From a virus: a DNA stretch of 32,176 nt. Below the pieces are notes generated by a model that saw only the letters and a program-made list of their open reading frames with translations, did no database searches and was not told the DNA's origin. The stretch lies in UHGV virus genome UHGV-1443735; one strand, written 5' to 3'. Both the position numbers and the translations under genes were made by a program. Shown piece by piece: positions 1,420 to 21,580 of this stretch; within the stretch, counting starts at the first letter, position 1; every line of letters starts with the position of its first letter.

Positions 1420-1881
1420 CTACTCCCCCTTGATGCCAGCGGCGCTAAGCTTGGTATTCACATCACCTTCAAAAATAGGCAGTACACCAATTGCAGCGGC
1501 CCAGTTTTTAGCTAACTCAGGGTCAGATGTCTCGTCGGTGTAGTCTGATGCCCGCCACCCAATCAGTCGTTTCTGACCAGGAATGTCAGAGTTTCGCTTC
1601 TCCGTTGCTTGCTCTAGAGCATTAAGAAGTGTACGTATTTCATGCTGCTGAGTAGAGATGCTTGAGTCTTTGGCTTCCAGCTCATCCAGCAGCGCCAGCA
1701 CGGTAGTGGGGTTTGCTGCGGAGTTCAGCGCGTTCAAGGCAGTGATATCTGCATCAAGCTGAGTTCCTTCTGCCAGTGAGATATCGAAAATGTCATCAGG
1801 CGGCATAACACTAAGGCGCTCATGTGCGCCAACTGCTGCCGCTGCGATTTCACGCAGCGCCTGTTTGTCGATGTTGCTCAT
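1420..1881 (-). CDS. Ea22-like family protein, short paralog (153 aa)
   Basis: N-terminus MSNIDKQALREIAAAA and motif VLALLDELEA are shared with the paralog at 2147-2890. ATGA start/stop overlap with the upstream gene. Confidence 0.7.
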   Translation of the reverse strand: MSNIDKQALREIAAAAVGAHERLSVMPPDDIFDISLAEGTQLDADITALNALNSAANPTTVLALLDELEAKDSSISTQQHEIRTLLNALEQATEKRNSDIPGQKRLIGWRASDYTDETSDPELAKNWAAAIGVLPIFEGDVNTKLSAAGIKGE

Positions 1882-2150
1882 TGGGCGGTTCCTTCGTAAC
1901 CGATGGCTTCTGCAATTTCAGCAAGTGTCTCTGCACTTTCACCCACTGGCTCATTCATCCAGTCGAAGGAAACAAGCTTACCGCCTTCGATAACGCCGAT
2001 GTTGAAATCATCACTACCTTGTGTTTTCAGACCATGCTTGATTGCCTTATCGCGCTTATCGAAGTCAACGCCGTCTGTCGTGTATTCAACTCCATGGCCT
2101 TTCTCGTTGCACCACCAGTACTGCTGAATAACGATGTATGATTTTCTCAT
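1878..2150 (-). CDS. hypothetical protein (90 aa)
   Basis: ORF with ATGA-type overlaps to both neighbours, indicating translational coupling within the operon. Confidence 0.55.
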   Translation of the reverse strand: MRKSYIVIQQYWWCNEKGHGVEYTTDGVDFDKRDKAIKHGLKTQGSDDFNIGVIEGGKLVSFDWMNEPVGESAETLAEIAEAIGYEGTAQ

Positions 2151-2890
2151 GACTGCACTCCTTTGCGAATTTGGTAGGCATGGACGCGCATTATGTCGAT
2201 TGCCTTCGATGTGACAGGATGCTGATGGTTCATCATCGCAATGACTGTGTTAATCGCTGAATCCACACCCTGCGCCCGCACTTCAGCCAGAAAAGCATCG
2301 GTGGCTGGGGTTTTGTTATCTGACTCCAGCCACTGGTTGTAGTAATAATCGAACATGCCAGTAGGATAACCACATCCGCTGTGCACGTGGTCTTTCATAG
2401 CAGAACCACACATGCAGTAGTCATTGTCAGTATTACTAATGATGTCGATAAGTTGCTGTGTCCGTTGCTTCAACATCGCATTCTCCGCCGCCAGCGCCGA
2501 AAACTTCTCGTGTGCCAACTTAACAGCTGCATCAGCCTGCTTAATTGACTCAGTCGCTTTCTGGTGGTCTTCGGCCAGCCCTGCTAAATCAGCCTCCAGT
2601 TCGGCTAGGCGTTCATTTAATGCATCTCGTTCATCCAGTAGTGCCAGCGCAACATTTGGATTAAAAGCAGCAATAAATTCAGCGTTTGCATAAGCCTGAA
2701 CATCTGTTTCAACCAGGCAGTTAACATGACATTCCGCAATCACACCACCGGGTTCTCCTTTCCATTTTTGACAAACAAAAACTCCTGTTATATTCCCATG
2801 CTGATTGCCCGATGTATGCCCTACGATGTAGCTCCCTTTCGTTGCCTGCTCTGCCGCCTCACGCAGTGCCTGATAGTCAATCTTGCTCAC
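2147..2890 (-). CDS. Ea22-like family protein (about 247 aa)
   Basis: Motifs [15 protein letters not shown] and ALALLDERD plus a coiled-coil middle. Start refined to GTG at 2890, preceded by GGAGG at 6-nt spacing; the ATG at 2911 lacks an RBS. Confidence 0.7.
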
Positions 2891-3072
2891 TGGTTGCCTC
2901 CTTTGCGCCACATCGCATTCAGATATTTGTTGTCATTAACAGAACCGAAACTCTTTCTCTTAAGCAATTCCTCTCTCGATGGCATTGGCTTTACGCGTTG
3001 GCGAATAATCATTTCTGCCGGAAGAATGCCGGGATTGTATGCAAGTCCTCTCATGGTAAATTCCTCAGTCAT
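2887..3072 (-). CDS. small hypothetical protein (about 61 aa)
   Basis: ATG at 3072 overlaps the stop of the upstream gene (ATGACTGA). The longer ORF-track version (to 3207) overlaps the neighbouring gene out of frame and is less likely. Confidence 0.4.
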
Positions 3073-3361
3073 TACTGATAGCGCCATAGCGTGAGCGGTA
3101 ATTACGCAGGCGCGGGTCGATATATTCAGGGAAGTGGGTATATGTGGCTTTGCGGAATGGTCGGATTGATGTCTGGTAAATTCGCTCGCGTTCTTCTTTC
3201 TCTGCAAGCCATATACAATGGCGAAATTCCTTTTCCTCTTTCGTTTCCTGCGGTAGCGACATTATCAGGTCGTAGTTTTTTCTGAATTTATCCAGCACCT
3301 CCGATACGGAATTGCCGGAACAGCGGCGCGGGTCATCCGCACCATACAGAGGCGCTGGCAT
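3065..3361 (-). CDS. hypothetical protein (98 aa)
   Basis: ORF immediately downstream of the SSB-like gene; AAGG-like RBS upstream of the ATG. Confidence 0.55.
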
Positions 3362-3384
3362 AATGGGAGCCTTATTTTCAGTAA

Positions 3385-3972
3385 TCAGAAAGGAGGGTAA
3401 TCGTTCTGGCTGTAACCATAATCATCTGCATGATTCTGGCTTACGTTTTTAGAGCGATTGTCTTTATCTTTGAGATTGGCAACCATGTTGGCGATAGTTT
3501 CTGGTTGCTTGCCTTCTGCCTTTTCTTTAAGGGTTTGACCTGTTTGTGCAATAAACGGGATGCGTATTTCCATCTGGTAGCTGTCTGCGCCAGTCTTTTT
3601 GTTTGTGGTTAATACTTTCTGAAGCACTAACCCGATTTTCTTTCCATGAAATTCAGGTGCAACAAATTTACTGGCGGAAACCATATGCTGCGTTAATTGT
3701 CCAATCCCGGCACACCCCATCATGGCGTGAACGACATTTGCGCCAAATTTGTTTTCCGTTCCGTCATTTTTCTGAACACAGACGCTAAGATATTGGATTT
3801 TACGTCCGTCGTCGGATTCGCCAGAAAACTCAATAAATTTGGCTCCTTTTTCTGATTGCTTTAGTTCTGCTTCAGTAATGGTAATGATATGAGCGCCAGT
3901 TTCGTTAATAAAACCACCTTGCCCTGCGGTCAGTGCTGCTTCTTCGTTATAAGTAAAAATCACGTTGCTCAT
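3385..3972 (-). CDS. phage SSB-like ssDNA-binding protein, probable partner of Sak4 (195 aa)
   Basis: C-terminus DDYGYSQNDYPPF resembles the acidic SSB tail ending in (D)IPF. Start overlaps the stop of the upstream ATPase gene (ATGA). The pairing of Sak4-type ATPase with a cognate SSB is known from phage recombination modules. Confidence 0.6.
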   Translation of the reverse strand: MSNVIFTYNEEAALTAGQGGFINETGAHIITITEAELKQSEKGAKFIEFSGESDDGRKIQYLSVCVQKNDGTENKFGANVVHAMMGCAGIGQLTQHMVSASKFVAPEFHGKKIGLVLQKVLTTNKKTGADSYQMEIRIPFIAQTGQTLKEKAEGKQPETIANMVANLKDKDNRSKNVSQNHADDYGYSQNDYPPF

Positions 3973-4649
3973 GCGGCGTTTTCCTTAATTTGATGAACAT
4001 TATTGATGCCGTAGTAATCACAAACAGTGGCATCGACGAAAGAGAGATCGTTATCAATCTCATTGGAATCAAACATTCCCATTGGGGATTTAACAGTGTC
4101 TGCACCGTTGTTTTTCGTGGTGAAAAAGAACTGGTCATCGCGGGTAAGAGTGCGAAGAACTATAGTAAACATGCCTTCGACAGTGATTTTCTCGTCCAGC
4201 ATTTTGCCGATAGTTTTCATTTTCACGCGCCCCATAGGGGTTTCTTCGGTGTGCGCAAGAAAATAGACTCTCAGGTCATCAGGTGCATCCTGTGCAGCCT
4301 TAATCACCTCCCATGCGTGGCGGCCTATCTCAGTAAATTTATCAAACGATTTTTCTTCTGAGCGGCGCATAAACTCATTGCTCATCACATACTGGAAGTC
4401 ATCAACAATAACGATTCTTTTCCCGTATTCGTGAGCACGCTTAATTACGGCAACTATTACGTCCCATTTGTCAGTGGTAACTACGGTTCCTTTTTTTGCT
4501 CTGGCATCCCATGCCAGCCATTCTTTTGATTTAAATGGTAGCGGCTTGCCTATTGGTTTTATAAGTATTGCTTCCTCTGGATTGATATTTCTCATGCTGG
4601 TTGATTTTCCGGTGCCAGACTCACCGAGTATTAATGTCGCAGTTCCCAT
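3969..4649 (-). CDS. sak4: Sak4-like RecA-fold ATPase (AAA_24 family) (226 aa)
   Basis: N-terminal Walker A GESGTGKS and Walker B-like IVIVDDF; size and single-domain architecture match phage Sak4-type recombination ATPases. Confidence 0.75.
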   Translation of the reverse strand: MGTATLILGESGTGKSTSMRNINPEEAILIKPIGKPLPFKSKEWLAWDARAKKGTVVTTDKWDVIVAVIKRAHEYGKRIVIVDDFQYVMSNEFMRRSEEKSFDKFTEIGRHAWEVIKAAQDAPDDLRVYFLAHTEETPMGRVKMKTIGKMLDEKITVEGMFTIVLRTLTRDDQFFFTTKNNGADTVKSPMGMFDSNEIDNDLSFVDATVCDYYGINNVHQIKENAA

Positions 4650-5119: not shown

Positions 5120-6088
5120 TTAGTAGGTTATTTTTGTTGCGAATACTTCGCCTTTTACGATGGCTGTTATGATATTTTTAGCAACATCTTCTGATGCGCC
5201 AACCTTGATAAGGTCAGCAAGTATTTTGTTATTTACTTCTTTCCGGTGAGCTTTATCCTTTGCTCTACACTCTTCTTCTTCCTTGATTCTTTTTTCTTCT
5301 GCTATTCTGGCTTGCTCTTTTGCTTCAGCCTCGCGCCGGATTCGTTCAGCCTCCTCCTGTGCTTTTCGGCGTTCTGCTTCAATTGCCGCCTGCTTTTCTC
5401 TTTCAGCTCGTTCTGCTGCCTCTTTTGCTTCGCGCTGTGCTCGTTGCTCGGCTTCAATGCGTTCACGCTCTGCACGTTCCGCTGCGGCCTTAGCTTCTGC
5501 TTCTCGCCTTGCTGCTGCTTCAATTTCGGCTTTTGCCTTTGCTTCGGCTTCTGCTCTGGCTTTCTCTTCAGCTTCTCTTTTTAAGCGTTCTTCATGCTCT
5601 CGCTTTTCCTGCTCCGCTTTGAGTCTTGCCTCTTCTCTTTGGCGGTCAAATTCGCGATCCATCAAAATAGCTATTTCATGGTCAGACTCAATTTGCTTTG
5701 CGAGAGCTTCAGCTGCTGCCTTAGCTTCTTCTTCGGCTTTAATCCGTGCCTGTTCCTCCTCATAATCAGTAAGAGGCTGGCGTGCCTTGGATTTCAGCTC
5801 ATCAAGGCGATCACGCACTGTCTTGCGGTTGGCATCAATTAGCTTTGGAATTTCCTTCAGTTCAGCAACAAGGTCTTTTCCAAGACCATCGAGATATGTT
5901 TTCGTCTGCGCAACTTTATACGCCAGAGAAGCGATCTCCTTTCTGCCCTTTGCCGTTGTGATATCAGGCACAAAGGACATAACTTCACGTTCAACCTTTT
6001 GAAGGATTTCTTCAATCTGGTCGGCAGACTGAAATACAGTCATTGCATTTGCTTTTTCAATAACAACTAAATCTGTTACTTCACTCAT
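5120..6088 (-). CDS. coiled-coil protein with TolA-like E/A/K/R-rich repeat region (about 322 aa)
   Basis: Start refined to ATG at 6088 with GGAGG at 5-nt spacing. The central ~130 residues are low-complexity charged repeats (AEAKAKAEIEAAARREAEAK...); N- and C-terminal regions are non-repetitive. Confidence 0.7.
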   Translation of the reverse strand: MSEVTDLVVIEKANAMTVFQSADQIEEILQKVEREVMSFVPDITTAKGRKEIASLAYKVAQTKTYLDGLGKDLVAELKEIPKLIDANRKTVRDRLDELKSKARQPLTDYEEEQARIKAEEEAKAAAEALAKQIESDHEIAILMDREFDRQREEARLKAEQEKREHEERLKREAEEKARAEAEAKAKAEIEAAARREAEAKAAAERAERERIEAEQRAQREAKEAAERAEREKQAAIEAERRKAQEEAERIRREAEAKEQARIAEEKRIKEEEECRAKDKAHRKEVNNKILADLIKVGASEDVAKNIITAIVKGEVFATKITY

Positions 6089-6100
6089 ATATCCTCCATC

Positions 6101-6127
6101 AAAAAAATCGCCCTCACATCGGAGGGC
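6101..6127 (-). terminator. rho-independent terminator (minus strand)
   Basis: 6-bp stem GCCCTC/GAGGGC with 6-nt loop, followed on the minus strand by a run of 7 T, immediately upstream of the RBS of the 5120-6088 gene. Confidence 0.6.
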
Positions 6128-6222
6128 AAAGAAGATTTCCAATAATCAGAACAAGTCGGCTCCTGTTTAGTTACGAGCGACATTGCTCCGTGTATTCACT
6201 CGTTGGAATGAATACACAGTGC

Positions 6223-6411
6223 TTATTCGTCATGCATTTCAGGTAATTCTTCGTATTCGACTCCCCATACGAGTTTACACCAAGTGACTCGCTCATATCT
6301 TTTACAAAAATCAGACCACATAACTTGTGTTCCATCATGGTTTGTTATTACTTCTGTAATATCACCAACACTAACAAAACTGGTATTAGAAGCAGTTATT
6401 TTTACTTTCAT
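6223..6411 (-). CDS. small hypothetical protein (62 aa)
   Basis: ORF whose start overlaps the upstream gene's stop (TAATG). Confidence 0.5.
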   Translation of the reverse strand: MKVKITASNTSFVSVGDITEVITNHDGTQVMWSDFCKRYERVTWCKLVWGVEYEELPEMHDE

Positions 6412-6698
6412 TACTTATCCCCAAGAGCTTTTCTGATTGCTGCAAGACCTTTATTAACAGCTTCATACCATTCTGGATATGTTGTCGTTGTTCTATTTTT
6501 GGATTGCTTAAGTAATAACTGAAGTGCTTCGAGAAGGTCAGGTGCTGCCGCTATCAGTAGCGCATCCTCCCTTTCATTTCTTGTTGCTGCTTCAATGTAT
6601 GTGTCACCAATCGTCACACCATGGAACGTAGTCATCATCTCGTTGACGTTTCTAACCGTGTACTTCCATTTACCAGGCGTACCCTTAAACTCTTTCAT
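6411..6698 (-). CDS. hypothetical protein (about 95 aa)
   Basis: Start refined to ATG at 6698 (the ORF-track start at 6704 is a GTG) with GAGGTG RBS. Confidence 0.55.
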   Translation of the reverse strand: MKEFKGTPGKWKYTVRNVNEMMTTFHGVTIGDTYIEAATRNEREDALLIAAAPDLLEALQLLLKQSKNRTTTTYPEWYEAVNKGLAAIRKALGDK

Positions 6699-10822: not shown

Positions 10823-11710
10823 ATGGCACGTTCAAGAAATATCAAACCAGGCTTTTTCACCAATGATGAATTAGCTGAGTGTTCTCCATATGCCCGTCTC
10901 CTTTTTGCCGGGTTATGGACTATTGCTGACAAAGAAGGGCGGTTGGATGATCGCCCAAAGAAAATTAAAGCAATGGTACTGCCTTTCGATGATGTGGACT
11001 GCAATGATCTGCTTCAGCAACTTCACAGTCACAAATTCATCAATCGATATCAGGTAAATGGCGGCTCATATATCCAAATCAATAACTGGAAAAAGCACCA
11101 GAACCCTCACTGCAAAGAAGCGGCCAGTGAGATACCAGAACCAGTAGAGAATAATAACAGCATCCTGCAAGTACAGTGCAAGGACGATAAAGAGGAAGAG
11201 AAGGAGGATACAGAATCACTTCAAGTCATTGAAAACAATGAAGCACCAGAAAAGCACCATGCAAGTACAGTGCAAGAACAAGTTGAGAACAGTTTAAATC
11301 CTGCTGATTCCCTTAACCTGATTCCTGATTCCCTTAACCTGATTCCTGATTCCCTTTCTAACACCCAAGCCGCTGACGCGACTTGTGAAGGGGGTGGGGC
11401 TGATGTCCATAAAATTTCAAGTCGCTATGCATTCGAAGGAAATATCGTTCGGTTAAACCACAAGGATTACGAAGCATGGAAGCGCCTGTATCCGAACATT
11501 GACCTGAATTACGAGCTGGAAAGGCTGGATATCGAATTTAGCCATGAGAAGCCAAAGAACTGGTTTATCACTGCCAGCCAGAAACTCAGCTACCAGAACA
11601 AGCAGGCGTTATCCAGACCGGTACGCAAGGTTGCTAATGGACTTAAGGCTGAAAACTTTGCCACCAAGGATTACGGACAAACTGAAATGCCTTCATGGGC
11701 GCAGGAGTGA
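10823..11710 (+). CDS. replication initiation protein, O-like, with internal iterons (about 295 aa)
   Basis: Position after cII and before the DnaC-like loader; internal direct repeats encode SLNLIPDSLNLIPDSL. Start refined to ATG at 10823 (AAGGTGGA RBS); the ORF-track start at 10814 is a GTG. Confidence 0.7.
   Translation: MARSRNIKPGFFTNDELAECSPYARLLFAGLWTIADKEGRLDDRPKKIKAMVLPFDDVDCNDLLQQLHSHKFINRYQVNGGSYIQINNWKKHQNPHCKEAASEIPEPVENNNSILQVQCKDDKEEEKEDTESLQVIENNEAPEKHHASTVQEQVENSLNPADSLNLIPDSLNLIPDSLSNTQAADATCEGGGADVHKISSRYAFEGNIVRLNHKDYEAWKRLYPNIDLNYELERLDIEFSHEKPKNWFITASQKLSYQNKQALSRPVRKVANGLKAENFATKDYGQTEMPSWAQE
11304..11355 (+). repeat. putative origin iterons inside the O-like gene (CTGATTCC... 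repeated 5 times)
   Basis: Direct repeats CTGATTCCCTTAAC / CTGATTC in tandem within the initiator gene, as with the lambda ori iterons inside O. Confidence 0.6.
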
Positions 11711-11712
11711 AC

Positions 11713-12558
11713 ATGACGCTGGATGAAAAGATCTCCCAACTGGAGAAAAAACTTGCAGAATTGAGTTCTCCGCCAATTGCTATCGAGCATACAGCTGTAG
11801 AAATTGGCACTGGCATCTGTGAAAAACACGGTGAGTTTGAGCAGCGTAACCGTTACTCGACTGGGCCAATTAAGTTTGCCTCAAGACCTAGCGAATGCCC
11901 GGAATGCATGAGAGATGAGCTTATTCGGCTACAGGCAGAGAAGATTAAAATCGACGAAGAATCACGTAAGCGCAATGTCGAATTTCTGTTGAATAATCTT
12001 GATATTCCTGAACGATTCAAGGGTTGCACACTACAGAACTACGAGCCAGTCAACGACGATGCAAAGAGAGTGCTCAGGGTGTGTCAGGCATACGCCAGCA
12101 AATGGCCTGAGAGGTTACAGAAAGGCGGTGGGCTGGTTATGTGTGGAAAGCCTGGTACTGGAAAGAATCATCTTGCACTGGCTATCGCCCGGCACGCAAT
12201 TACGGAACATCAAAGCTCAGCTATTTTCACAACGGCGCTGAAAATTGCCAGAGAATATAAATCAACATGGTCGAAAAACTCCACCCGCACTGAGGATGAA
12301 GTGATCCGACAGTTCACTAAACCTGACCTGCTAATTATCGATGAGGTTGGTGTGCAGTTTGGAAGCGAGGCGGAAAAGATGATCATGTTCGAAATCATCA
12401 ACACCCGCTACGAGCGCATGAAGCCAACAATCCTGATTAGTAATCAGAGCAAAGATGAACTTTCGGCATTCATTGGTGAGCGTGTTATTGACAGGATGAA
12501 TGATGGCGGAGGGTGCACTCTTGCGTTTACATGGGATAGTTACAGGAGCAGATCGTGA
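11713..12558 (+). CDS. DnaC-like helicase loader (IstB-like ATPase) (281 aa)
   Basis: Walker A GKPGTGKNHLA and Walker B LLIIDEVG; start refined to ATG at 11713 with AGGAG RBS overlapping the O-like stop. Confidence 0.85.
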   Translation: MTLDEKISQLEKKLAELSSPPIAIEHTAVEIGTGICEKHGEFEQRNRYSTGPIKFASRPSECPECMRDELIRLQAEKIKIDEESRKRNVEFLLNNLDIPERFKGCTLQNYEPVNDDAKRVLRVCQAYASKWPERLQKGGGLVMCGKPGTGKNHLALAIARHAITEHQSSAIFTTALKIAREYKSTWSKNSTRTEDEVIRQFTKPDLLIIDEVGVQFGSEAEKMIMFEIINTRYERMKPTILISNQSKDELSAFIGERVIDRMNDGGGCTLAFTWDSYRSRS

Positions 12559-17156: not shown

Positions 17157-17620
17157 TTAGCGCACTGGTTAAGCGTTACTGGCTGCAGTTGCTGGTGCTG
17201 GCGTTAATCGGCGCACTGGCTTTCTTCGTGAACCACTACCGCGACAACGCCATCACTTACAGAGACCAGCGCGATAAGGCCACTGAGAAACTCCTCCTGG
17301 CGACCGCCACCATTAAAGACATGCAGACCCGCCAGCGTGATGTCGCTGCACTGGATGCCAAATACACCGGAGAACTGGCTGATGCGAAAGAAACCATTGA
17401 GCGTCTGCATAGCGATGTCATTGCTGGCCGTAAGCGGCTGCAAGTCGCCGCCACCTGTGCAAAGTCAACGACCGGAGCCAGCAGCATGGGCGATGGAGAA
17501 AGCCCAAGACTTACAGCAGATGCTGAACTCAATTATTACCGTCTACGAAGTGGAATCGACAGGATAACCGCGCAGGTTAACTACCTGCAGGAGTACATCA
17601 GGACGCAATGCCTGAAATAA
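17153..17620 (+). CDS. Rz: i-spanin Rz (155 aa)
   Basis: ...[22 protein letters not shown]...[20 protein letters not shown] closely matches lambda Rz. Confidence 0.88.
17382..17567 (+). CDS. Rz1: o-spanin Rz1 (lipoprotein), embedded in Rz in the +1 frame (61 aa)
   Basis: [20 protein letters not shown] has a signal peptide and lipobox (LAVSGC), followed by a Pro-rich segment; lies wholly within Rz. Confidence 0.75.
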
Positions 17621-17651
17621 TTTTTTTGCAAATCACAAAGTCCATTTAATG

Positions 17652-17676
17652 AGCCTCGCGATGCGGGGCTTTTTGC
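17652..17676 (+). terminator. rho-independent terminator after the lysis cassette (first of two)
   Basis: 8-bp stem (one G-U pair) followed by TTTTTG. Confidence 0.55.
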
Positions 17677-17681
17677 AATAA

Positions 17682-17706
17682 ATGCGTACCGCAACGCATG
17701 TTTTTT
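17682..17706 (+). terminator. rho-independent terminator after the lysis cassette (second of two)
   Basis: Stem ATGCGT/ACGCAT with 6-nt loop followed by a run of 6 T. Confidence 0.65.
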
Positions 17707-17821
17707 ACACCGAACCTGCCCCTTTGGAATGGGCCTTTGAGGATACCAGTTAGTGCTGGCGAGCCTCGGTGGGCTGGTTTCCTGTGCGGCAAAGGTTCAT
17801 TTCAAAGAGTAGGTACACGCT

Positions 17822-18319
17822 ATGAAATCATTAACCCTCTTCAATCAACCAATTCGTATCGGTGAAGATGGCATGATCTGCCTCACTGATATGTGGAAAG
17901 CCAGTGGTAAAAGTGAATCTGAATCGCCTTACCACTACCTGCGAAACAAGCAGACCAAAGAGTTCTTAGCCGAGTTGGAGAAAAACCACGAATCTGTGGT
18001 TTTTACTGAGCGCGGTGTACACGGTGGAACATATGGCGGGAAGTTTGTTGCTTACGATTATGCGGCTTGGTTAAACCCCGGGTTCAAGTACGCGGCCTAT
18101 AAAGTCCTCGATGACTACTTCACCGGAGAACTTCAGCATCGCAACAGCTTAAGTGCGCAGCTCAACATGAAATGTCATGAGTTTGACCAGAAGAAAGACA
18201 TGGCGAGCTTCTGCGGACAAGGGCTGGCAGCATGGCGCTATACGAAGCCAGTGTTGGTCGCTGAGATTAACTCCCTGGCTAACCAGCTGCAGATTACGAT
18301 CCCCGGGCTTCCGGGATGA
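17822..18319 (+). CDS. KilA-N domain protein (165 aa)
   Basis: N-terminal region (...IRIGEDGMICLTDMWKASGKSE...EFLAELEKN...YAAWLNPGFKYAAYKVLDDYF) resembles the KilA-N/APSES-type DNA-binding domain. Confidence 0.6.
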   Translation: MKSLTLFNQPIRIGEDGMICLTDMWKASGKSESESPYHYLRNKQTKEFLAELEKNHESVVFTERGVHGGTYGGKFVAYDYAAWLNPGFKYAAYKVLDDYFTGELQHRNSLSAQLNMKCHEFDQKKDMASFCGQGLAAWRYTKPVLVAEINSLANQLQITIPGLPG

Positions 18320-18585
18320 GTGATCGTGTCATTGAATGCGCCTCCAGAGCGGGGCGCGACTTCTCAGAGTTCATGAAAGGCGAGAAGGGCATGATGGAAG
18401 CATTGGCCTCGGTGGATGAGTTTGGCGAGCAGCTGCGCCTCAACGGCTGTGTCAATCATCACTTTGTTAGCTACATGATGCGGAACTCGATCATGCAGGC
18501 ATTCATGGACATGGCAAAAGCCGAGAGGAAAGAAGAGCGCCGGCGTAAGCGAGCGGAAGCAAAAGCAAAAGCAAAAGTGAAGTAG
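18316..18585 (+). CDS. hypothetical protein (89 aa), basic C-terminal tail
   Basis: ATGA overlap with the KilA-N gene; Lys/Arg-rich C-terminus. Confidence 0.5.
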   Translation: MSDRVIECASRAGRDFSEFMKGEKGMMEALASVDEFGEQLRLNGCVNHHFVSYMMRNSIMQAFMDMAKAERKEERRRKRAEAKAKAKVK

Positions 18586-18879
18586 CCATTACAAAGCCTA
18601 TCTACGGATGGGCTTGATAATGAAACCAAAATTTATTCTTGGCAACCAGTTACGGCAGTACCACGAAGCAACCCAAGCCAGTAAGTGGGGAAATAACACT
18701 GGCAGCCACTGAAAGATGAACCTCCTGCCTTATGGCAAAAAAGATTATTTGTGGTGGCGGACTGATGGAAAGACATCGGTTATTGCAGAGACCATTCAAT
18801 GAGTGGTCTCGACAATGGCTTATACCCTACACGGGATAACTTAACTGATATCCCTTTTAACGGATAAACGGAGCCAACA

Positions 18880-19122
18880 ATGGCAGAGATTATTCCCATG
18901 ACTGAAGAACAGAAATTCCAGTTAGAGATTTACAAGCTGGTCATGAACCAGAACGCAGCCGCAGAAGAAGCATTTCAATTCATTGGCACTGACGAACTGA
19001 AGCTTGAGCTATTTAAAATTCACTTCCAGTCAGGTGGCGCTAATTCAGATATCACGACCCGAACTATCGAAGCGGTGCGTAAATCGAGGGAAGCGTTAGA
19101 CCTGTTCACCACCGGAGCATGA
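18880..19122 (+). CDS. hypothetical protein (80 aa), translationally coupled to the HslV-like gene
   Basis: ATG with ACGGAG RBS; stop lies 1 nt before the start of the downstream gene. Confidence 0.55.
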   Translation: MAEIIPMTEEQKFQLEIYKLVMNQNAAAEEAFQFIGTDELKLELFKIHFQSGGANSDITTRTIEAVRKSREALDLFTTGA

Positions 19123-19123
19123 T

Positions 19124-19612
19124 ATGACCACTATTGCATGGGATGGAAAGACCCTGGCATCTGACACCCAGGCATCATCTGGTGATGTTGTGTGTTCGTA
19201 TACAGAACAAAAGATTTACACACCGCCAGAATCTGGGTGGGAGGTTTGCGGCAGTAAAGTGGTTGCATTAGGTTGTTCTGGTGATTGCGGCGCGGAGATG
19301 GAATTGCAGGAACTGCTTAAGAACAACCTGACGTATGCATCAGAATTTCTCCCGACATTCTCTTTCACCGCGCTTGCTATCATCGGTGCTGGTCGTGCTT
19401 ACATCATCTCAAAAGAGAAAGGCGAAACGCGGGCGAGTATTTCGCGACAGGTTGAACCGTATGCCATTGGTAGTGGTTGGCTGATTGCTCGCACAGCCAT
19501 GCACTGCGGCAAAAATGCGAGAGAAGCGGTACAAGTCGCAATTGATATTGACTGCTATTCCGGCGGCAGCGTTGATTCGTTCCCCGCTGGGAAGCAAACA
19601 GAAGGGAAATAA
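19124..19612 (+). CDS. HslV/proteasome-like Ntn-hydrolase family protein (162 aa)
   Basis: After Met removal the N-terminus is TTIAW... (Thr nucleophile). Segments align by eye to E. coli HslV: SDTQASSG vs GDGQATLG, a Lys near position 30, [10 protein letters not shown] vs AGFAGGTADA, and AIGSG vs AIGSG. Confidence 0.6.
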
Positions 19613-19617
19613 TCAAT

Positions 19618-20106
19618 ATGGCAGCACCAAAGGGCAACCGATTTTGGGAGGCCCGCAGTAGTCATGGGCGAAATCCTAAATTCGAATCGCCTGAGGCGCT
19701 GTGGGCTGCTTGTTGTGAATACTTCGAGTGGGCTGATGATAACCCACTATGGGAGGGTAAGGTATTTTCATATCAGGGAGAAATAATTAAGGCTAATGTC
19801 CCTAAGATGCGAGCCATGACTATTTCAGGATTGTGTACCTTCCTTGATATCACCAGGCAAACGTGGGGAACCTTCCGGTCAATGGAAGGTTTTTCTGACG
19901 TCACATCACGAGCGGAAGACATCATCTACGACCAGAAATTCTCTGGCGCAGCCGCTGACCTTCTCAACGCTAACATCATCGCCCGTGATTTGGGCCTCAA
20001 AGAGCAGTCGCAAGTTGAAGACGTGACACCTGATAAGGGAGATCGCGATAAGCGGCGCTCTCGTATCAAGGAGCTATTCAACCGTGGAACTGGACGCGAT
20101 TCTTGA
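19618..20106 (+). CDS. terminase small subunit (P22 gp3-like) (162 aa)
   Basis: [38 protein letters not shown]... matches my recollection of P22 gp3; directly upstream of the large subunit. Confidence 0.85.
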
Positions 20107-21580
20107 TAACCTGAGCGACGAAGAGCAAATCGAGTTGCTCGAGCTACTCGAAGAAGAAGAGAACTACCGGAACACACACCTGCTATATGAATTTACGCCA
20201 TACAGCAAACAGCGTGAGTTCATCGACGCCGGACATGACTATCCAGAGCGCTGTTTTATGGCTGGTAACCAGCTTGGTAAGTCATTTACTGGTGCTGCTG
20301 AAGTCGCGTTTCACCTTACCGGGCGTTATCCGGGCACAAAAGGCTATCCTGCTGATGGTAAATATGGCGGTGAGTGGAAAGGTAAGCGTTTCTATGAGCC
20401 TGTTGTCTTCTGGATTGGCGGCGAGACAAACGAGACGGTAACCAAAACGACTCAACGCATCCTGTGCGGTCGTATTGAAGAGAATGATGAGCCGGGCTAC
20501 GGTTCAATACCGAAAGAGGACATCATTAGCTGGAAGAAGTCTCCTTTCTTTCCGAACCTTGTTGATCATCTTCTGGTTAAGCATCACACGACTGATGGCG
20601 TTGAAGATGGCATTTCAATCTGCTACTTCAAACCATACTCGCAAGGCCGCGCTCGCTGGCAGGGTGACACAATCCACGGCGTGTGGTTTGACGAAGAGCC
20701 ACCATACAGCATTTATGGCGAAGGTCTTACCCGTACCAACAAATACGGGCAATTCTCAATTCTGACGTTTTCCCCGCTGATGGGGATGTCTGACGTTGTT
20801 ACCAAGTTCCTGAAGAATCCCAGCAAGTCGCAGAAAGTGGTCAACATGACCATCTATGACGCTGAGCACTATACCGACGAGCAGAAAGAGCAAATCATCG
20901 CATCCTATCCTGAGCATGAGAGAGAGGCGCGTGCTCGCGGTATTCCTACGATGGGTAGTGGTCGAATCTTCCAGATACCGGAAGAGACTATTAAGTGTCA
21001 GCCGTTCGAGTGTCCTGATCACTTCTACGTCATCAATGCAATGGACTTCGGATGGGATCACCCACAGGCACACATCCAGCTTTGGTGGGATAAAGACGAG
21101 GACGTGATTTATCTTTCTCGCGTCTGGAAGGCCAAACAGAAGAAGGCGACAGAGGCATGGAGTGCTGTTAAAGCATGGAGCAAAAACACCCCTACGGCTT
21201 GGCCTCATGACGGGCATCAGCACGAAAAGGGAGGCGGCGCTCAGCTCAAGGAACAATACGCCGACGCTGGGTTCGATATGTTGCCAGATCATGCAACATG
21301 GCCTGATGGAGGTAATGCGGTCGAACCCGGGATAGCAGAGATACGCGACATGATGCTCGACGGTCGTTTCAAGGTATTTAACACCTGCGAGCCATTCTTT
21401 GAAGAGTTTCGCCTGTATCACCGCGATGAGAACGGGAAGATCGTCAAGCTAAATGACGACATCCTTTCTGCTGTTCGCTATGGCTACATGATGAGGCGTT
21501 TTGCAATACAGATGCGAGACATCAAAGATCCTAAAGAGATTGATTACTCAAGCTACAACATACCTTGCGGAGTTGGATGA
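20084..21580 (+). CDS. terminase large subunit (P22 gp2-like) (498 aa)
   Basis: Large ORF after the small subunit, with conserved ATPase and nuclease regions; GTG start overlapping the small-subunit 3-prime end. Confidence 0.88.

Follow-up and report, generated by a model that had tools for sequence, protein, structure and literature searches.

The closest described relatives of the gene treated here are the phage proteasome homologs (PPH), which Fuchs, Alva and Lupas (2021) defined as proteins of ~140 amino acids (aa) that carry no propeptide and are encoded by Caudovirales or within proteobacterial prophage regions. Their survey placed PPH in group I together with HslV and BPH, described BPH as the hub from which PPH radiates, and found that among the homologs only PPH and RPC lack helix H2. 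In addition, gene 50L of phage Xp10 has been deposited as a 'putative peptidase of the HslV family', and papers on jumbo phages note HslV genes without HslU. Here we examine a gene of this kind in the virus genome UHGV-1443735, of which the whole stretch of 32,176 nucleotides (nt) that was analysed is called the window. The gene, at positions 19124..19612 on the plus strand, encodes a 162-aa protein starting with MTTIAW and identical to the RefSeq 'hypothetical protein' WP_000207295.1. This protein (henceforth the peptidase) is a proteasome/HslV-type N-terminal nucleophile (Ntn) hydrolase, and it very probably belongs to the PPH family.

Homology, fold and catalytic residues

As a single 162-aa sequence, the peptidase matched the PHROG 1040 family ('peptidase HslV family', E 3.7e-37), while Pfam gave nothing at E<=1 and phmmer found no match in the PDB. 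In NCBIfam no HslV model appeared at E<=1, and the sole match was archaeal proteasome beta at 14.7 bits (cutoff 224). Single-sequence searches of Pfam, NCBIfam and the PDB being insufficient, profile methods were needed. From 99 homologues collected at E<=1e-3 in a 90%-identity clustered database, 57 were used for the family profile and alignment. Searched against the PDB, this profile had its best match overall in the proteasome beta subunit of M. jannaschii (3h4p, E 1.9e-9) and also matched HslV of T. maritima (1m4y, E 7.5e-9), E. coli, S. aureus and B. subtilis, as well as, over the C-terminal half only, BPH (E 9e-6). Twelve of the 57 members individually matched Pfam Proteasome (PF00227). 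Using hhalign, the family profile aligned from residue 1 with E. coli HslV (probability 96%, E 2.3e-9; HslV sequence checked against PDB 5ji3), pairing MTTI with MTTI, Asp14 with Asp17, Lys30 with Lys33 and AIGSG with AIGSG. The family is large: a profile search of 1.84 billion representatives returned 12,587 50%-identity representatives at E<=1e-3 (9,124 at E<=1e-10), the best of which were 136-150 aa long and aligned from residue 1.

The AlphaFold2 (AF2) model of the protein has a predicted local distance difference test score (pLDDT) of 95.2 and a predicted template modelling score (pTM) of 0.89. In Foldseek it matched beta subunits, HslV and BPH with probability 1.0, and 189 PDB chains were returned at E<=1e-3; those listed were all proteasome beta, HslV or BPH. 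The closest structural matches are true peptidases. The model shows the four-layer Ntn sandwich with one helix layer reduced: a single predicted 10-residue helix (57-66) lies between strands 48-53 and 81-88, where HslV has both H1 and H2. The hhalign alignment has gaps opposite the H1/H2 residues of HslV, ~25 residues of this layer being deleted in the peptidase. The last 4 residues are disordered in the model, and there is no extra C-terminal domain.

The positions expected to form the active site are encoded as follows.

19127..19129, plus strand: codon of Thr2, predicted N-terminal nucleophile after Met removal; M1 and T2 invariant in 57 of 57 members, aligned on HslV MTTI, no propeptide
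19163..19165, plus strand: codon of Asp14 (= Asp17 of HslV/proteasome); kept in at least 90% of the family, aligned to HslV Asp17
19211..19213, plus strand: codon of Lys30 (= Lys33); invariant, aligned to HslV Lys33
19271..19285, plus strand: loop Gly50-Cys-Ser-Gly53-Asp54, matching the GxxGD (Gly47...Gly50-Asp51) oxyanion-hole loop of beta subunits; Gly53 invariant
19469..19477, plus strand: Gly116-Ser117-Gly118 (= Gly-Ser129-Gly motif); Gly116 and Gly118 invariant, aligned to HslV AIGSG and archaeal beta ATGSG
19550..19564, plus strand: Asp143-Cys-Tyr-Ser146-Gly147 (= beta Asp166...Ser169-Gly170); Asp143 and Gly147 kept in at least 90%, aligned to M. jannaschii beta 'RDTFSG'

In the 57-member alignment M1, T2, K30, G53, G116 and G118 are thus invariant, and T3, D14, D143 and G147 are kept in at least 90% of members; the catalytic set is also retained in distant phage copies. 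Gly53 falls on the second Gly of HslV 'AGG' in hhalign, and either Gly50 or Gly53 is a candidate for the oxyanion-hole equivalent. Where the peptidase has Asp143-Cys-Tyr-Ser146-Gly147, E. coli HslV has 'ICIYTN', and this motif is beta-subunit-like rather than HslV-like.

The peptidase has the MTTI start of HslV, from which Met would likewise be removed, and residues that align with Asp17, Lys33 and AIGSG. It differs from HslV in having no hslU partner gene and no match to a curated HslV model, in a shortened H1 and a missing H2, and in the beta-type Asp-x-x-Ser-Gly near the C-terminus. Whereas HslV proper forms a dodecamer of two hexameric rings and has both H1 and H2, the modelled peptidase lacks H2. 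Judged from its sequence, it is not an HslV orthologue. BPH (PDB 5ovs/5ovt/5ovu) is, like the peptidase, a stand-alone proteasome homolog without a known ATPase, but is longer (~185-200 aa) and forms double heptameric rings; it has H1 and H2 followed by a long acidic pore loop, and this H1/H2-loop region is deleted in the peptidase. With the 20S beta subunits (archaeal, actinobacterial and eukaryotic) the GxxGD loop, Gly-Ser-Gly and Asp166/Ser169/Gly170 are common, but the peptidase is ~40-60 residues shorter and has no propeptide, no alpha-subunit partner, no H2 and no C-terminal S12/H5.

What remains fits PPH. The gene is prophage-borne in Proteobacteria, its product is compact, without a propeptide or C-terminal domain and, in the model, without H2, and the equivalents of Thr1, Asp17 and Lys33 and a glycine loop are conserved; the lack of a C-terminal domain excludes RPC. 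Homologues are found in 183 phage records, and the direct relatives are 137-151 aa long (E 1e-8 to 1e-14). The length of 162 aa, compared to the ~140 of the family definition, is due to two clade-specific insertions that the short members lack, one of ~10 residues following Lys30 and one, 'KEKGETRA', at about residues 97-104, with ~20 residues extra in all. Among the copies in phages, CDS0077 of phage Dewey is 90% identical to the peptidase and lies in the same late region, while Xp10 50L and the 'HslV family' proteins of SPN3US-like and Erwinia jumbo phages show 27-35% identity over ~94% of the length. These annotated copies differ from the peptidase in their genomic setting, which may be an early-type gene string, a genome end or a tandem array of paralogs. 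RAY gp116 is a further candidate copy, suggested by the literature.

The original prediction, made from the letters of the window and their open reading frames (ORFs), had described an 80-aa ORF followed by a 162-aa ORF starting with MTTIAW, exactly the layout found. It had aligned the longer product by eye with E. coli HslV, and the same segments were recovered by HMMER (with T. maritima HslV) and by hhalign (with E. coli HslV). The proteasome/HslV relationship proposed in it is upheld by the significant profile matches to both families and by the predicted Ntn sandwich fold. The proposed N-terminal Thr nucleophile likewise agrees with the conservation of a full putative catalytic set. It overstated the novelty of the find: the family is not new, having been preceded by the PHROG 1040 label, the Xp10 50L record and the description as PPH in 2021.

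The prophage locus and the slot before the terminase genes

A P22-like E. coli prophage of the Lederbergvirus type makes up the window. Around the peptidase gene its features are these.

18880..19122, plus strand: DUF2560 gene, 80 aa (PF10834, E 1e-43), TGA stop at 19120-19122; a backbone gene of P22-like phages
19114..19117, plus strand: Shine-Dalgarno GGAG of the peptidase gene, read from the sequence; within the 3' end of DUF2560, with a 6-nt spacer to the ATG at 19124
19124..19612, plus strand: peptidase coding sequence (CDS)
19618..20106, plus strand: small terminase gene of P22 gp3 type (PF16677, E 8e-31; PHROG 606, E 3.5e-71)
20084..21580, plus strand: large terminase (TerL) gene, an ORF call annotated as terminase large subunit in the near-identical prophage
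from 21565: portal gene, third gene downstream of the peptidase

A single nucleotide separates the DUF2560 stop from the peptidase ATG, and 5 nt separate the peptidase stop from the small terminase start. The 733-nt stretch 18880-19612 is 100% identical to prophages of E. coli 0H15-0H26 and MS 115-1, and an annotated near-identical prophage has the usual gene order of Q, lysis cassette, Rha/KilA-N, DUF2560, the 162-aa gene, gp3-type small terminase, TerL, portal, scaffold and P22 coat. No sigma-70-like promoter site was found on the plus strand upstream of the peptidase gene, and the total count of such sites was at the level of shuffled sequence. An own promoter, which would make the gene a moron expressed in the lysogen, was rejected for want of such a site, and recent foreign acquisition was rejected because the GC content is not deviant. 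From this arrangement the gene is most likely expressed as part of the late transcript.

Several details of this prophage deserve mention in their own right. The window is mosaic relative to the prophages that match at 100%, with KilA-N and an 89-aa ORF (17600-18600) where 0H26 (L001 18700-19800; L numbers denote loci) has one 'Rha family' CDS. The KilA-N/ORF11CD3 protein (17822-18319) has a weak PADLOC match to the candidate system PDC-S22 (E 1e-8, ~30 residues), probably a shared DNA-binding segment. ARAGORN found no tRNA genes in the window; the 0H26 prophage carries tRNA-Asn and tRNA-Thr after Q. In 0H24/0H26 (NZ_CP081778.1, NZ_CP081786.1; L099) the same phage genome appears in the assemblies in two forms, integrated in the chromosome and as a circular 'plasmid' record of its own (39,448 bp), which suggests spontaneous excision or replication, i.e. 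an active prophage.

As optional cargo, the peptidase gene occupies a swap-in slot with DUF2560 on one side and the small terminase gene on the other. DUF2560 is found in 106 phage records, in one of which the peptidase follows, and in 898 of 5,426 complete E. coli genomes, 10 of which have the peptidase after it. Of the P22-like prophages and phages that have this DUF2560-terminase-portal-coat module, about 99% are without the peptidase. The slot is otherwise filled by a 59-aa gene (hkbN) in HK620 and E. coli ET151, or by a 134-aa gene in UPF_BP1, each beginning 1-2 nt past the DUF2560 stop. A module junction lies directly after this stop in P22-like phages (19120-19126 in the window; same in L093, L094 and L095), and the DNA homology of the 733-nt stretch to other phages stops at its base 248. 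Two side observations concern annotations at this place: the 134-aa slot ORF is annotated 'head decoration protein', and the gene in small-terminase position of E. coli ET151 (L095 2242-2697), named 'ubiquitin carboxyl-hydrolase' in RefSeq, is probably a misnamed HK620-type small terminase.

DUF2560 is missing from most of the lineages with the peptidase. The DUF2560 homologue and the peptidase are separated by a 95-aa ORF in phage Dewey, and in locus L038 the order of the two is reversed. On these grounds, together with its distribution and the interchangeable slot genes, DUF2560 was rejected as a dedicated partner. For a wider view of the neighbours, ORFs were called and clustered in 93 phage and prophage loci, which represent 28 peptidase lineages at 70% identity, and in 45 genome loci. 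Recurrent neighbours were the Rz spanin, KilA-N, DUF2560 and terminase or portal genes of different families; the most widespread of them, the Rz spanin, occurs in seven of the 28 lineages, and no neighbour family exceeds this number. No conserved partner beyond lysis and packaging genes was found in the 93 phage and prophage loci and 45 genome loci. Nor was an HslU- or Clp-type unfoldase found in the window, in the near-identical whole prophage or among the neighbours across the 28 lineages. Among ORFs of at least 200 aa, the window has only two P-loop proteins, a DnaC/IstB-like loader (11695-12558), which is its only AAA+ protein, and an AAA_24 protein (3969-4649).

Set against these results, the original prediction was right that the window holds no HslU-like ATPase and that the gene is among the late genes, with the small terminase next in line. 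Its idea of a gene pair with the 80-aa ORF is not borne out, given the rarity with which the two adjoin in E. coli.

Settings in other phages and in bacterial chromosomes

Elsewhere the family is found in rather different places. Xp10 50L lies in a leftward gene string with p7, primase and helicase, which we take to be early genes. On jumbo-phage contigs (~126-235 kb), two or three PPH paralogs of 178-244 aa stand in tandem, away from head genes.

L059, 5001-6209: tandem PPH array
L060, 3219-4492: tandem PPH array
L062, 5001-6954: tandem PPH array
L068/L070, 4081-6124: tandem PPH array

A divergent DUF7484 gene (PF24302) adjoins the arrays in all four jumbo lineages, and a homologous ORF of ~460-500 aa does so in three of the four (not L059). 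Some of the paralogs have degenerate catalytic positions, e.g. L059_8 (Ser2, Ala53, Pro117, Cys143) and L062_7 (Ser2, Arg30). As a whole, the arrays look like the active and inactive subunits of a hetero-oligomer, as in the proteasome.

Five related Acetobacteraceae genomes (Roseomonas/Falsiroseomonas; L110, L111, L121, L124 and L126) have a PPH of 149 aa at 6001-6411 with the catalytic set intact. It is located in a chromosomal island between pyrB and the gene of a pyrC-like amidohydrolase, 80 bp downstream of pyrB, with RuvX, plsY and dprA nearby and no phage genes around. This is a non-phage setting beyond the two exceptions of Fuchs et al. In L121 the sole other gene of the island is a convergent ORF, a candidate solute-binding protein by its translation alone. 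After the PPH come, in order, this convergent ORF, the pyrC-like gene, plsY and dprA.

Two further loci are worth recording. In L011, a 70-kb metagenomic phage contig, a 138-aa PPH (6001-6417) lies in a long same-strand run of small ORFs, ~2 kb downstream of a gene matching Pfam Acb3 (PF25187; 2982-3803), in what looks like an early or accessory region. In L085, from a group of 46-49-kb Klebsiella/Salmonella phages, a large terminase of 844 aa (Terminase_3; 1797-4331) is split by Hint and LAGLIDADG homing-endonuclease domains, making it an intein-containing TerL, 2-3 genes away from the PPH.

Proposed function and competing explanations

On balance we favour, as probable rather than firm, a minimal Ntn hydrolase that would, without needing ATP, cleave host proteins or peptides late in infection. 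Met1 would be removed by the host methionine aminopeptidase, as for E. coli HslV, the gene of which also starts with MTTI, and the exposed Thr would then serve as nucleophile and general base partner. The protein would self-assemble, probably into rings; the tandem paralogs of jumbo phages, some of them degenerate, hint at self-assembly into hetero-oligomers. Working late in lytic growth and independently of ATP, it might contribute to host takeover or counter-defence.

A number of points weigh against this proposal. We infer activity, oligomeric state and substrate alike. HslV alone is a poor peptidase without HslU, and independence of an ATPase is thus not guaranteed. The loss of H2 might alter or block ring assembly, and Fuchs et al. 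give a general warning that some homologs may not form rings. In the literature searched we found annotations and the 2021 survey only, and no study of the activity, structure, substrate or function of any PPH. With PADLOC neither the peptidase nor DUF2560 had a match at E<=0.01, and there is no positive sign of a role in defence or counter-defence; membership of the peptidase in a defence system was rejected on this result. Finally, the gene is often near packaging genes, with a terminase or portal gene at most five called ORFs away in ~14 of the 28 lineages, which could mean a packaging or head role.

That last point is the foundation of one competing explanation, in which the peptidase would process a head, scaffold or packaging protein. 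The small terminase gene is the next or next-but-one after the peptidase in ~10 lineages, and the small terminases concerned are of different families (PF16677, PF20901, PF03592 and PHROG 51); the peptidase sits between TerL and portal in two cases, Skatevirus SeSz-2 and L081. However, terminase genes are known to be flanked by hot spots for cargo, and in SeSz-2 the peptidase is one of several small ORFs in an island flanking the terminase. P22-type heads mature without proteolysis, and the P22-like relatives that have the same module nearly all do without the gene. Given this dispensability, the early-type placement in Xp10, the jumbo arrays away from head genes and the bacterial pyrB locus, we read the terminase adjacency as a preference for cargo islands that flank packaging genes and not as a head function. 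A packaging protease is, on this evidence, very unlikely. We likewise infer that PPH is not a virion-assembly protease, because nearly all P22-like phages that have these head genes do without it and because of the Xp10 placement and the Acetobacteraceae chromosomal copies.

A different possibility is that the peptidase forms a hybrid with host HslU: HslV-like hexameric rings would dock HslU, which would unfold and feed substrates, and ATP-dependent proteolysis would be redirected or boosted. The N-terminal MTTI is the same as in E. coli HslV, and the hairpin from Asp to Lys, which in HslV helps to form the groove for the HslU C-terminus, is equal in length, with 15 residues between. The phage hosts listed are gamma-proteobacteria, which generally encode HslU. 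We nevertheless regard such a hybrid as unlikely. No HslV-specific model matches the peptidase, and the family profile is equally near proteasome beta subunits. The beta-type Asp166/Ser169/Gly170 motif is kept where E. coli HslV is missing it. The H1/H2 layer, from which the ~25 residues are deleted, is the one that faces HslU in HslUV structures, and the paralog sets of jumbo phages suggest self-contained assemblies. Microbacterium phages, whose hosts were assumed to be without HslU, had been considered as an argument against HslU dependence, and were dropped because their matches cover only 23% of the query. Highly improbable, in our view, is a non-proteolytic role, either as a connectase-like ligase or transpeptidase or as a decoy subunit that would disable host proteolysis by mixing with host HslV/HslU or titrating it. 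Loss of H2 could accompany a non-ring state, and the enterobacterial clade has the ~10-residue insertion after Lys30 that distinguishes it from members of 138-150 aa. Connectase, a monomeric ligase from which the first helix pair is absent, has a two-helix lid between S3 and S4; in the model of the peptidase this lid is absent, with only beta structure there. A pure decoy role is at odds with the strict conservation of the whole catalytic set, and a non-proteolytic role in general with the closest structural matches being true peptidases.

As a sequence finding, the peptidase is an ordinary one, a correctly recognised member of an annotated family. We consider it quite unlikely that PPH is a self-contained viral 'mini-proteasome' that, with no ATPase or by capturing host HslU, destroys a specific host factor late in infection. 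If true, its target might be, e.g., an immune sensor for terminase, portal or capsid proteins, which would account for the recurrent adjacency to packaging genes in unrelated phages, and the tandem paralogs of jumbo phages would amount to the hetero-oligomeric form of this machine. The E. coli P22-like prophage, seen also as a free 39.4-kb circle in two assemblies, together with the cultured phage Dewey and its 90%-identical copy, offers a tractable entry to the biology of PPH, making accessible the questions of what a phage proteasome-type peptidase does, whether it needs HslU and whether it takes part in counter-defence.

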